A stretch of 63,990 bases of DNA, filler included, from an uncultured Methanosarcinales archaeon (GTDB lineage Archaea; Nanobdellota; Nanobdellia; Woesearchaeales; UBA12501), in NCBI GenBank assembly GCA_964397315.1. It is 8 parts of 8 records of this genome, joined end to end, with 100 filler letters (N's around TTAATTAATTAA, not from the genome) between each part and the next. Parts side by side here need not be neighbours in the genome. Positions count along the whole stretch, not along the records: positions 52,297 to 59,496 come from CAYNHV010000045.1; positions 59,597 to 63,990 come from CAYNHV010000056.1; 6 more parts are not named here. One strand, 5' to 3'. Made by a program: the position numbers. Within the stretch, counting starts at the first letter, position 1. Each line of letters opens with the position of its first letter. This document shows positions 57,001-60,000 of this stretch, piece after piece.

Positions 57001-60000
57001 AAGAAGCTCTGCAAGGGCCAGCCCGAGCATTGACTTTCCGGTGCCGGGCTCGCCTATCAGAAGGACGTGCCGCCTCTGCATGGAGGCCTTCTTTATGACG
57101 TCAACAGCATCCTCCTGGCCTATGACCTGGTCTGCAATGCTCTGCGACACCTTGAGCTCTTCTGTTGTCTTGAAATCAAAGCCTGAGCTCTTGTCCGCGC
57201 TCCTGCCTGCGCCGCTGCTGCTTTTGCCTTCAGATTCAGCCATGTTCCCCCTCTGAGAGTGGATTTAATACTTTTGCAAGTCCTATTTAAAGGTTTTGAA
57301 ACATTAGATCATACAAGCCACCAAAAACAATATAAAGAATATATGAAATGACAGATGAGGGTGTTACAGGAGGTCAGAATGGGAGAGGTATATGAGAAAT
57401 TCATTGCAGAGGTTCTTGAGAACAATCCCTACGCAGACAAGGCCCTTGTAAAAAAGGCGTATGATTTCGCCAAAAAGGCGCATGAGGGGCAGACGAGAAA
57501 GTCAGGGGAGAGGTATCTTGCGCATCCTGTGGAGGTTGCAAGGATTCTTGTGAAGCTCAAGGCTGACTCTGCAACAATATGCTCCGCGCTCCTGCATGAC
57601 TGTGTTGAGGACGGCTGCGTGTCCCTTTCAGAAGTAAAAAGCGCTTTTGGAAACGAGATATCCTCTCTTGTTGAGGGAGTCACAAAGATAACGGGCCAGC
57701 ACTTTGAGTCAAAAGAGGAGTACAAGGCAGAGAATCTCAGGAAGGTGCTTCTCGCAACAACAAAGGACATAAGGGTCATGCTCATAAAGCTTGCTGACAG
57801 GCTGCACAACATGAGGACGTTGAGCGCCCACAGGGAGGACAAGCAGAAGAGGATAGCCAAGGAGACCATTGACATTTACGCGCCAATAGCGCACAAGCTG
57901 GGCATAAGGACTATAAAGGGCGAGCTTGAGGACCTCTCCCTGAAGTACCTTGACCCTGACGCGTATTACGCTCTAAGAGACCAGATAGCCTCAAAAAGGG
58001 GGGAAAGGGAGGAGAGGGCAAAGCAGTTCATAAAGCTCATCAATGAAAAGCTGAGGGAGAGGGGGATCAATGCGGCAGTTGAGGGAAGGGCAAAGTATTT
58101 CTACTCAATCTACCAGAAGATGAAGAAGGAAAACAAGGACTTCAACGAGATATATGACCTTATTGCAATAAGGATAATAACCAACACCCTTCCTGAATGC
58201 TACGCCTCTCTGGGAATAGTGCATGAGCTTTTCAAGCCCATGCCCGGCAGGTTCAAGGATTTCATCTCAGTGCCAAAGGCTAACGGATACCAGTCATTGC
58301 ATACCTCTGTTGTCGGAGGGCACGGCAGGATTATAGAGATACAGATAAGGACATCAAACATGCACCACATTGCAGAGGAGGGCATTGCAGCCCACTGGAG
58401 GTACAAGGGGACTGAGAGGGACAAGAAGTTTGACAGGAGGATAAGCTGGCTCAAGCAGCTGCTGGACTGGAAGATGGACTCCAAGACAGCCAAGGAGTTT
58501 GTGGAGACCCTCAAGATAGACCTGTTTGAGAATGAGATTGTTGTCTTTACCCCTAAAGGAGACCCGATATCATTGCCTGAGGGCTCAACACCCGTAGATT
58601 TTGCTTATGCAGTCCATACCAATATAGGCAACCAGTGCTCAAAGGCAGAGGTTAACAACTCAATAGTGCCTCTTAATTACAGGCTGAAGAACGGAGACAT
58701 AGTGCACATCCTTACCCAGAGGAATGCAAAGCCTTCAAGGCAGTGGCTTAATTTTGTGAAGACCTCAAAGGCAAGGAGCAAGATAAAGTCCCAGCTCAAC
58801 ATAACAACAGAGCCCAGGGAGAAGGAGGGGGAGAAAAAGCAGGATCCTGTGAAGCAGCTGGAAGTGACAAGCAGGAAAGCCCCCCTTAAGATTTCAAAAT
58901 GCTGCAGCCCAGAGTATGGCGAGCCCATAATAGCCTTCTACACAAAAGACGGGAGGATAACAGTCCACAAGAAGGACTGCCCCACGCTTAAGGGGCTTCC
59001 AGGCAAGAAGATGGCTGCAGTAAGGTGGAAGGAGGAGGCCAAGGAGCAGTTCAAGCTCAGGGTTGTTGTGACAGACAGGGTGGGGCTTCTGGCTGACGTG
59101 CTTAACCTGCTCGCTGTTAAGAAGATAAACATCCAGTCAATCTACACGCGCTCAAAAAAGGACAAGGTCGTGATAACAATAAAGATGACCCCTCCTCCTG
59201 AGGCAGACCTGAGGGACGTGATAAAGAAGATAAGGGAGATTGAGGGAGTCATTGACGTGAAAAGAGGCGAATAGGGTATGGGGGCATATAGTTTGATGAC
59301 GTTTTAAAGAGGAAATCCTCCAGATGTTGCATCTGCCTGTTTATGAGTTCTAAAAATGATACTTGTTTTAGAAATAGGAATTCCTCCAGAGTTCTCCTCC
59401 TCCCTTGTCGCGATTACAAACTGATTTTTCCCGCCCTCCATCCCCTTCAACATGCTAATCGCACCAACTCCACAGGGCGCTTTAAGCAAATTAAGGNNNN
59501 NNNNNNNNNNNNNNNNNNNNNNNNNNNNNNNNNNNNNNNNTTAATTAATTAANNNNNNNNNNNNNNNNNNNNNNNNNNNNNNNNNNNNNNNNNNNNGCTT
59601 ATTGGCTAAAGAAGAGGGGGAGTTGTGCGGTTTTGGAAGGAAAAAACCTGCGAGGCGGTTGTGCAGTAAGGGTGGGAAGTACCAGGAGTTATTATCATAA
59701 ACAAACCACTCTAAAGGCGGAAAGTACCAGGAGTTATAAGCATAGATCTATTACCCCCTTGGAAGTATCAGGACTTATTAACCTAACTATATGCCCCCTC
59801 AAGGCTGGAAGCGCAGGGAATCATCAGAACCCATGCTCACATCATCCTTTGCCTTCTTACTTCTTTTCATCAAAAACTTAATATACAAGAAGCAAATCAT
59901 TTTCCCAAAATGGCATTAAGGGAGCCCGAATCAATGGATGAGTGCGTCTACTTCACCAGAAGGACGCTGGAGAACAACGGCAGGATTAGGGCCTGGGCAT

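Follow-up and report, generated by a model that had tools for sequence, protein, structure and literature searches.

A full-length, probably bifunctional RelA/SpoT homologue with a reduced helical domain in a Woesearchaeales genome

Gene content and context of the locus

The window (the whole stretch of DNA that was analysed, 63,990 nucleotides) contains a gene for a long RSH of the Rel type, located on contig C45 (CAYNHV010000045.1). This contig corresponds to window positions 52297-59496 and is 7,200 bp long. The source organism is a small symbiotic-type archaeon. The features identified at the locus are the following:

52824..53828, + strand: archaeal Kae1, KEOPS t6A synthase (TIGR03722 arch_KAE1, 414 bits against a cut-off of 375; synteny)
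55306..57243, - strand: archaeal LonB protease, divergent neighbour (TIGR00764, 846 bits against a cut-off of 517; Pfam LonB_AAA-LID)
57244..57378, no strand: 135 bp of AT-rich intergenic sequence separating the divergent LonB and RSH genes, with TATA-like stretches (sequence inspection)
57355..57378, + strand: possible N-terminal extension of 8 codons from an upstream in-frame ATG (relatives align from 57379)
57369..57374, + strand: GGAGGT, resembling a Shine-Dalgarno sequence and separated by 4 nt from the ATG at 57379 (sequence inspection)
57379..59274, + strand, stop codon included: long RSH (Rel-type) gene, 631 aa (ORF and translation, Pfam, TIGR00691, match to 6yxa, AF2, Foldseek)

The enclosing open frame extends from 57355 to 59274 (+ strand) and would code for 639 aa if read from its first ATG. 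This upstream ATG is probably not the start used, judging from the N-terminus of the 631-aa product, which lines up with the N-termini of the relatives. The first-pass annotation had described an archaeal neighbourhood, and this holds for Kae1 and LonB, both on the same contig as the RSH gene; the sequence from 59597 on had to be separated, as it belongs to contig C56. Since C45 ends at 59496, the true neighbours of the RSH gene are limited to Kae1, LonB and two ORFs without a name. A YkuD gene, a GDSL gene, a TPK gene and a zinc-ribbon gene were rejected as downstream neighbours, given that they sit on another contig.

Domain architecture and fold

The 631-aa protein has the domain order HD, synthetase, TGS, zinc finger and ACT/RRM; what is left of the helical (AH) domain lies between TGS and zinc finger. 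All of these regions are coded on the + strand:

57457..57906, + strand: HD (hydrolase) domain, residues 27-176 (Pfam HD_4, 1.4e-49)
58084..58413, + strand: synthetase domain, residues 236-345 (Pfam RelA_SpoT, 1.1e-41)
58537..58716, + strand: TGS domain, residues 387-446, with H413 just inside (Pfam TGS, 4.9e-21)
58717..58875, + strand: AH-domain remnant and disordered linker, residues ~447-499 (AF2, Pfam, alignment to chain 8fr8_I)
58876..59013, + strand: zinc-finger (ZFD/CC/RIS) domain, residues ~500-545 (alignment to mycobacterial Rel CTD; C508, C509, H530, C534)
59050..59265, + strand: ACT/RRM domain, residues 558-629 (Pfam ACT_4, 1e-13; AF2)

The protein scored 724.4 bits against the NCBIfam long-RSH family TIGR00691 spoT_relA, well over its cut-off of 499.2, and stayed under the NCBIfam cut-offs of both the SpoT equivalog NF008303 (595 bits against 947) and the RelA equivalog NF008124 (459 against 728). 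When the phmmer search was repeated, the match to B. subtilis Rel 6yxa over residues 22-492 reported in the first pass was recovered with an E value of 2.7e-152. The AF2 model has a mean pLDDT of 87.8, and its ACT/RRM domain shows a beta-alpha-beta-beta-alpha-beta fold with pLDDT ~90.

Catalytic and ligand residues

The HD domain contains R40, H49, H73-D74, E77-D78, D140 and N144, of which the H, HD, ED, D and N residues presumably have the metal and catalytic roles reported for RelSeq. These positions are invariant or nearly so in an alignment of 70 archaeal and bacterial sequences (R40, H49, H73, D74, D140 and N144 without exception), and they are kept in 55 to 58 of the archaeal copies, which were pulled by BLAST from the loci of the relatives. 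The HD aspartate D74, for example, is kept in 55 of 58. In three relatives (G055, G166 and G254) the HD residues are degenerate and those of the synthetase are kept, so that members of the family are not all bifunctional.

The synthetase residues found were R237, K239, K247, D260, R265, R291-F-K293-D294, Y304-QSLH308, E320, Q322 and R324. Eleven of them (R237, K239, K247, D260, R265, D294, Y304, H308, E320, Q322 and R324) are present in 59/59 archaeal copies, and the first ten of these eleven are also invariant in the 70-sequence alignment. The variable positions are R291 and K293, kept in 36 and 41 of the 59 copies respectively, and copies from other orders have ExDD in place of RXKD. The motif of our protein, RFKD, is of the RXKD type, which we take to mark bifunctional Rel proteins, as opposed to the EXDD of the RelA type.

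The putative zinc ligands C508, C509, H530 and C534 are invariant in the 70 sequences and were found in 55-56 of the 59 archaeal copies, the misses being truncated rows. By alignment, H413 is the equivalent of B. subtilis H420 and D260 that of D264; H413 is kept in 58 of the 59 archaeal copies and the remaining one is cut off at this point. The roles of H420 and D264 are described in PMC7797070, according to which the conserved TGS histidine reads the CCA end of the tRNA. The Pfam and TIGR00691 scores, the match to 6yxa and the conservation of these residues bear out the first description of the gene product (g01446) as a long RSH of full length whose two active sites are intact.

A nearly lost helical domain

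The C-terminal part had been noted to be ~90 aa shorter than in bacterial Rel, and this shortfall corresponds to the helical domain between TGS and zinc finger. The Pfam family of this domain, RelA_AH_RIS (PF19296), was not detected, and no Pfam family matched residues 440-560 even at E<=10; a bacterial Rel used as control in the same test scored 68.7 bits for PF19296. In the alignment to chain 8fr8_I, 10 residues of the query stand opposite 96 residues of the chain, i.e. ~86 are missing. The AF2 model retains in this region only the helices 454-458 and 463-472, and pLDDT falls below 50 at 478-485. PF19296 was likewise absent from the precomputed domain lists of all the 120 closest relatives. 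We also obtained a rough figure of the spacing between TGS and zinc finger by motif regex, which located both motifs in 143/183 rows. Among the 108 bacterial-type representatives having both motifs, 9 have a spacing of <160 residues.

The gene resides in an archaeal genome

The possibility that a misbinned or chimeric bacterial contig brought this gene into the assembly has to be considered, as the protein is of bacterial type and the contig is short (7,200 bp), with both ends falling in sequence with ~10x the k-mer depth of the remainder. Several observations go against it. Kae1 and LonB, on the same contig, are both identified by archaeal equivalog models. One Logan contig spans 56877-59340 and so joins the 5' part of LonB to the entire RSH gene, with a depth as low as that of the remainder of C45; these Logan contigs show only that C45 is reproduced, since the assembly may itself derive from two of the three runs, which would then not be independent of it. 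The three are DNA runs from one microbial-mat study, with no RNA run among them. Among 41 loci of relatives, 15 have Kae1 next to the RSH gene (9/12 with wide flanks and 6/29 with narrow ones), and this adjacency recurs in records named Woesearchaeota and Nanoarchaeota. Full-length copies were also found in the one-contig genomes G016 and G285, as well as in G028 and G098, assembled in 3 and 4 contigs respectively, and the genome studied here is 93% complete with a contamination of 0.07%. Together with the position of the protein in the phylogenetic trees (see below), the contig neighbours, the synteny and the copies in closed genomes establish that the RSH gene is a resident archaeal gene, and contamination is effectively refuted.

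Distribution and origin of the archaeal copies

Matches to PF04607 were found in 72 of the 151 sampled genomes of the order, and 53 of the 151 have a full-length copy, defined as a match scoring 128 bits or more within an open frame of 565-755 aa. The previous estimate that half of the order carries the synthetase domain is thus reproduced as a range, from about a third (full-length) to half (any synthetase match). The best 120 relatives are 56-76% identical to the protein and the named ones among them are labelled Woesearchaeota or Nanoarchaeota archaeon. Identity to the bacterial-type representatives is ~42-48%. Over residues 20-450 the median identity is 47.3% between archaeal and bacterial sequences and 48.7% among the bacterial ones, and this closeness of both values fits an origin inside the bacterial Rel radiation.

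The IQ-TREE phylogeny, with 26 loci of the own order and 52 representatives (the truncated L020, L031, L035 and L048 were left out), has a branch with SH-aLRT 99 that splits 43 archaeal rows from 44 bacterial-type rows. A FastTree run, which omitted two representatives of <560 aa, gave a similar archaeal clade with support 99. The bacterial rows of the trees come from 150 representatives, those with the greatest similarity to the query, and the trees have no outgroup. The midpoint root falls on the long branch of L024, for which reason the IQ-TREE tree is read as unrooted. From these data, an ancestor of Woesearchaeales and neighbouring orders would have acquired the Rel gene from bacteria, this being the presumed direction of transfer. 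The archaeal sequences forming one clan, the synteny and the family-structured distribution suggest that mainly vertical inheritance with losses at the level of families followed. The donor could not be named from the cluster members, the protein atlas or a homologue search with representative P0176. Named bacterial-type rows are few (Mitsuokella, Fimadaptatus, Caldatribacteriaceae and a deltaproteobacterium), the commonest taxa of the nearby protein-atlas clusters are Spirochaetota or Pseudomonadota, and the P0176 search named only Firmicutes, lower in the list.

Comparison with known RSHs

The bifunctional Rel proteins of Firmicutes (B. subtilis 6yxa, S. aureus NTD 7oiw and S. equisimilis RelSeq 1vj7) share with the archaeal protein the HD-SYNTH-TGS-ZFD-RRM order, ~46-49% identity (~47% for B. 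subtilis Rel), the catalytic residues including RFKD, and the equivalents of H420 and D264. The N-terminal half of the AF2 model superimposes on the catalytic domains of S. aureus Rel with a TM of 0.93 and an rmsd of ~2 A (Foldseek). They differ in the helical domain, which has ~110 residues in Firmicutes and is reduced to a stub of ~40-50 here, and in the host, which is archaeal and has archaeal ribosomes. E. coli RelA (5iqr, ribosome-bound) and A. baumannii SpoT (7qpr), the top Foldseek matches, have the long-RSH architecture too. E. coli RelA has a dead HD domain and an EXDD motif, whereas the archaeal protein combines an intact HD domain with RFKD.

The bacterial long RSHs with short linkers (P0176, P0221, P0240 and relatives, 670-690 aa) are similar to the archaeal protein in that PF19296 is weak or absent (22 bits, under the cut-off). 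In the tree their branches are the basal ones of the bacterial side, beside the archaeal split, and some are found on contigs of 0.3-3.7 Mb, a size that implies bacterial genomes. Their spacing between TGS and zinc finger is 151-154 residues, and the linker is still ~30 residues longer than that of the archaeal protein. The archaeal small RSHs (SAS/SAH of Methanosarcina, Methanococcoides and Natronomonas; Atkinson 2011) belong to the same superfamily and probably reached archaea also by gene transfer, but they are single-domain proteins and not five-domain long RSHs.

The RelA/SpoT proteins of DPANN archaea in two genome surveys are of the same family and lineage, and the gene described here is one more member. 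PMC8407392 gives RelA/SpoT in 41.7% of Woesearchaeota as an acquisition from Bacteria, with a phylogeny in its Fig. S34, and Table S3 of PMC8204110 (one of the supplementary tables that, it had been warned, might list the family) contains it as fam00540, K01139, with 0.52 for Woesearchaeota (N=196). NCBI annotation already names these archaeal proteins as well. Thus the novelty implied in the first-pass annotation did not hold. Its general background did: long RSHs are considered bacterial or plastid, Atkinson 2011 lists none for archaea, and (p)ppGpp, said to be undetected in archaea, is still regarded as a bacterial and plastid molecule by reviews and recent articles in the field of nucleotide signalling, among them PMC13725321 (2026, on GGDEF proteins of archaea) in its introduction. 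A full-text literature search turned up PMC8407392 alone as a paper in which these lineages are connected with ppGpp or RelA/SpoT; the Woesearchaeota genomics papers PMC11606122 and PMC8421398 had none of the ppGpp/RelA/SpoT terms searched. The surveys, in the parts available, offer presence percentages and an inferred bacterial origin, and no domain, motif, synteny or helical-domain analysis was found in them.

Proposed function and alternatives

The protein is probably a catalytically competent, bifunctional long RSH of the Rel type acquired from bacteria and controlled through its C-terminal domains. Its synthetase domain would transfer pyrophosphate from ATP to the 3'-OH of GDP or GTP, giving (p)ppGpp, a signal of starvation in bacteria, and the HD domain would hydrolyse it back, both activities being predicted from the complete conservation of the catalytic residues and the fold. 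Regulation would probably involve the TGS, zinc-finger and ACT/RRM domains. The TGS histidine for reading the 3'-CCA of uncharged tRNA has been retained, which would make sensing of uncharged tRNA the most likely trigger. In B. subtilis, TGS plus the helical domain forms a stable complex with tRNA and TGS alone does not (PMC7797070). With this tRNA-holding aid nearly gone, docking would have to differ from the bacterial mode. GppA/Ppx (PF02541), Obg (PF01018) and HflX (PF16360) had no match in this 93% complete genome, so that a bacterial-style set of effectors is not evident.

Other readings of the enzyme were weighed against the same data. It could be a real enzyme whose control takes place away from the ribosome and depends on free uncharged tRNA, on a small ligand bound to ACT/RRM or on a protein partner, with the hydrolase on by default. 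Archaeal ribosomes differ from bacterial ones and the AH domain is truncated, both of which would agree with such control; on the other hand, the CCA-reading histidine of TGS, the four zinc-finger ligands and the RRM are conserved across the clade, short linkers are also present in some bacterial long RSHs, and in bacteria TGS, zinc finger and RRM contact the ribosome and tRNA (PMC7797070). We regard this as possible and rather on the doubtful side. It seems unlikely that the protein serves mainly as a hydrolase clearing or recycling (p)ppGpp that enters along with nucleotides from bacterial neighbours or hosts, with no endogenous signal. The HD site is intact, the known effectors were not found in this genome, bacterial Rel is hydrolase-dominant off the ribosome (PMC7797070) and some Woesearchaeota have been proposed to be nucleotide-scavenging episymbionts of bacteria (PMC8204110). 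Yet the eleven synthetase residues are kept more strictly than the hydrolase ones, and the three relatives that lost hydrolase residues kept their synthetase, a pattern contrary to that expected of a pure scavenger. Even less probable is an enzymatically silent relic, or a protein re-used for a non-alarmone role such as binding RNA or the ribosome only. Both catalytic centres are strictly conserved at 35-50% overall identity, implying selection on catalysis.

Implications

Returning to the bifunctional Rel, the suggestion that this lineage is a candidate for an archaeal alarmone system stands as far as the full-length RSH, its intact sites and the archaeal genome are concerned, and falls with regard to the novelty of the gene. 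The alarmone system itself is something that we infer from the sequences. We advance tentatively the idea that Woesearchaeales and neighbouring orders of Nanobdellota run the first archaeal (p)ppGpp system, in which a Rel without helical domain would read uncharged tRNA on or beside the archaeal ribosome and, with GppA, Obg and HflX missing, would act on non-bacterial effectors. To our knowledge there is no Woesearchaeales culture in which physiology could be tested. The value of the finding is tempered by the gene presence already recorded in two genome surveys of 2021 and in NCBI annotation. Nevertheless, in this large archaeal order a complete Rel is retained by a third of the genomes sampled, its two catalytic centres evidently under selection, and the question of whether any archaea use (p)ppGpp can now be addressed directly with one clonable gene. 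The natural architecture without helical domain also offers a tool for studying the docking of long RSHs on ribosomes. If the proposal is true, the alarmone system would tie the growth of a nutrient-dependent symbiont to the supply from its host.

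Gene model and domain architecture

The window consists of contigs strung together with N spacers, and the RSH (RelA/SpoT homologue) gene lies on one of them, C45 (window 52297-59496, 7,200 bp), in the following open frame:

57355-59274, +, open frame with the RSH gene (ORF reading)

A GGAGGT motif is found four bases before the ATG at 57379 and the N-termini of the relatives agree with this start, making the 631-aa protein the best gene model. Its Pfam domains appear in canonical order, HD_4 (1.4e-49), RelA_SpoT (1.1e-41), TGS (4.9e-21) and ACT_4 (1e-13). The protein scored 724 bits with NCBIfam TIGR00691, whose cut-off is 499, and stayed below the cut-offs of the proteobacterial SpoT and RelA equivalogs. 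The phmmer match to B. subtilis Rel (6yxa) over residues 22-492 was reproduced (2.7e-152), and residues 503-629 align with the zinc-finger and RRM (ACT/RRM domain) part of mycobacterial Rel in solved structures. ORF, Pfam, TIGR00691 and phmmer thus all bear out the long RSH that the first-pass annotation had placed at 57379-59274. No other HD_4 protein was found in this genome (G000), and neither were Ppx/GppA, Obg or HflX (completeness 93%).

Catalytic sites and predicted fold

In an alignment of 70 archaeal and bacterial proteins, the invariant residues include R40, H49, H73, D74, D140 and N144 in the HD part, R237, K239, K247, D260, R265, D294, Y304, H308, E320 and Q322 in the synthetase, and C508, C509, H530 and C534 in the zinc finger. 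These ten synthetase residues and R324 are retained in all 59 archaeal copies compared (four of them cut by contig ends), and D74 of the HD pair in 55 of 58. By the phmmer alignment D260 corresponds to B. subtilis D264 and H413 to H420. The D264G variant of B. subtilis Rel is synthetase-dead, while H420 makes a stacking contact with the 3'-CCA of uncharged tRNA, and activation by tRNA is abolished in H420E (PMC7797070). Over its N-terminal half, the AF2 model (mean pLDDT 87.8) superimposes on the catalytic domains of S. aureus Rel (TM 0.93, rmsd ~2 A, 46-48% identity), and its best whole-chain match is RelA on the 70S ribosome. Judged from its sequence, this is a real Rel-type enzyme and very probably an active one.

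The synthetase motif of the window protein is RFKD, the type found in bifunctional Rel enzymes, EXDD being that of RelA. Most copies of its own order also have RxKD, in contrast to ExDD in seven copies belonging to other orders within the class (L045, L046, L048, L051, L053, L055 and L057), in which the HD residues are intact; in bacteria ExDD marks monofunctional RelA. The copies L024 (G055), L059 (G166) and L061 (G254) have degenerate hydrolase residues (H, A or G in place of D74; E77 or D78 lost) and an intact synthetase. This RSH is the sole HD_4 match in each of the three genomes, two of which are 100% complete. By the standards of bacteria, it is unusual for a synthetase to occur alone, with no hydrolase that can be recognised.

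Genomic context

The neighbours on C45 had been called archaeal, and rightly so: Kae1 scores over the cut-off of the archaeal equivalog TIGR03722 and LonB matches TIGR00764 with 846 bits. Among 12 loci from records named Woesearchaeota or Nanoarchaeota, Kae1 directly adjoins the RSH gene in nine, with LonB usually one gene farther off; of 29 narrow-flank loci that represent other genera of the order, six have Kae1 beside the RSH gene. Here two ORFs stand between Kae1 and LonB, indicating a local rearrangement or insertion in G000, since Kae1 of the relatives abuts the RSH gene directly:

53819-54490, +, ORF of 223 aa between Kae1 and LonB, without Pfam match
54496-55155, -, ORF of 219 aa between Kae1 and LonB, without Pfam match

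One Logan contig from run X1, possibly the source of the assembly, corresponds to 56877-59340 and contains the 5' part of LonB and the entire RSH gene at a depth of ~7-8x, equal to the rest of C45. In each of the three runs, k-mer depth at the contig ends (52297-52350 and 59336-59496) is ~10x that inside C45, and several differing continuations exist. The ends are repeated or shared sequence, which accounts for the break in the assembly. G000 has 93% completeness and 0.07% contamination. The RSH gene is a resident archaeal gene.

The same LonB-Kae1-RSH block is present in L036, L041 and L044, public records under the title 'uncultured Methanosarcinales archaeon' that are nested within the Woesearchaeota clade; their organism label looks wrong. 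The next contig in the window, C56 (59597-63990), is separate from C45 and encodes a GDSL hydrolase, a thiamin pyrophosphokinase, a zinc-ribbon protein and

60770-61318, +, YkuD L,D-transpeptidase catalytic domain protein (33 bits)

Such a peptidoglycan-type transpeptidase domain is odd for an archaeal genome.

Distribution and phylogeny

Of 151 genomes from the order, G000 among them, 72 had a PF04607 match of any kind and 53 had the full-length type (at least 128 bits, open frame of 565-755 aa), including G016 (one contig), G028 (three contigs), G098 and G022 (four contigs each). In a sample of the phylum, 90 of 201 high-quality genomes match at E<=1e-20, 21 of which belong to orders of the class other than Woesearchaeales. 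The RSH gene belongs to a clade widespread in Woesearchaeales and neighbouring orders. Some families in this sample bear it almost throughout (f1 5/5, f95 21/22, f60 6/6, f68 7/7) and others mostly lack it (f44 0/20, f129 1/10). This family-structured presence is the pattern of vertical inheritance plus losses.

Many Woesearchaeales also have PF04607 matches of 50-110 bits in frames of 236-490 aa (for example G074:C70, G014:C12, G022:C2 and G143:C43) that look like small alarmone synthetases, beside or in place of the long form. Outside the window, at C46:1950-3926 (L002:181-2157 +), G000 encodes a 658-aa protein with a second, weak RelA_SpoT match close to its C-terminus (37 bits, covering model positions 46-105); neither another Pfam domain nor a sequence match in the PDB was found for it. 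Similar partial matches occur in frames of 640-1660 aa in G012, G036, G083 and G147.

A FastTree phylogeny of 183 rows (148 of the best 150 50%-identity representatives, at least 560 aa long, and 35 archaeal copies) grouped all 35 archaeal copies together with eight short representatives (clade support 99). In an unrooted IQ-TREE analysis (LG+C20 PMSF, quick search, 87 rows), a branch with SH-aLRT 99 splits 43 archaeal rows (27 of the order, 8 of other orders and 8 short representatives, one of them Nanoarchaeota per NCBI) from 44 bacterial-type rows. Median identity over residues 20-450 was 47.3% between archaeal and bacterial sequences, 48.7% among bacterial and 50.5% among archaeal ones. 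These nearly equal values fit a single acquisition out of the bacterial Rel radiation that preceded the divergence of the orders. The tree gives neither the direction of transfer nor the donor, as it is unrooted and its bacterial rows are those most similar to the query. The nearest rows on the bacterial side are the representative P0176 and its relatives, some of which come from contigs 0.3-3.7 Mb long; among named sequences, those of Firmicutes are nearest.

Loss of the helical domain

The protein had been described as ~90 residues shorter than bacterial Rel; this holds, and the missing part is the helical (AH) domain between TGS and zinc finger. Residues 492-503 stand opposite residues 564-661 of chain 8fr8_I. 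The TGS and CCxP motifs are spaced 118 residues apart in the window protein. For 32 rows of the archaeal clade the median spacing is 123, and for 108 other rows it is 197, with nine of the latter also below 160. The AF2 model has only helices 454-458 and 463-472 here, followed by a low-confidence stretch (478-485) and the zinc finger. As controls for RelA_AH_RIS (PF19296), a Firmicute Rel gave 68.7 bits and P0176 22 bits; Pfam, this model included, gave nothing for window-protein residues 440-560 even at E<=10, and PF19296 is listed for none of the best 120 relatives. In B. subtilis, TGS alone formed no stable tRNA complex and TGS plus Helical did (PMC7797070). With AH lost and TGS alone insufficient in B. 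subtilis, the mode of contact with tRNA and ribosome, if any, must differ from the bacterial one.

Relation to previous surveys

Atkinson 2011 reported only small RSHs in archaea and named the absence of long RSHs an archaeal trait, and a 2026 paper about GGDEF proteins of archaea still describes (p)ppGpp in its introduction as 'found in Bacteria and plants' (PMC13725321). A 2021 study gave RelA/SpoT shares of 69.0% in Diapherotrites, 41.7% in Woesearchaeota, 21.3% in Pacearchaeota and 19.0% in Nanoarchaeota, and predicted a bacterial origin for RelA/SpoT of DPANN lineages (PMC8407392). Novelty with respect to the supplement of PMC8204110, left standing by the first-pass annotation, has to be given up: row 938 of its Table S3 lists the family (fam00540, HD_4, K01139) with frequencies of 0.52 in Woesearchaeota (N=196), 0.84 in Diapherotrites and 0.38 in Micrarchaeota. 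The main text of that paper has no mention of it, and the family median length of 296 aa indicates that small and long forms are mixed. NCBI names relatives of the protein 'bifunctional (p)ppGpp synthetase/...hydrolase [Candidatus Woesearchaeota archaeon]', and full-text searches found no literature linking ppGpp to these lineages beyond PMC8407392. Both publications and databases already record the RSH clade in Woesearchaeales and neighbouring orders.

To what these surveys give in the text and tables cited, we add the audit of the catalytic sites, the Kae1/LonB synteny, the one-clan tree, the identification of the helical domain as the deleted part and the lack of GppA, Obg and HflX. Whether this candidate is an archaeal alarmone system is now a question testable with one clone.
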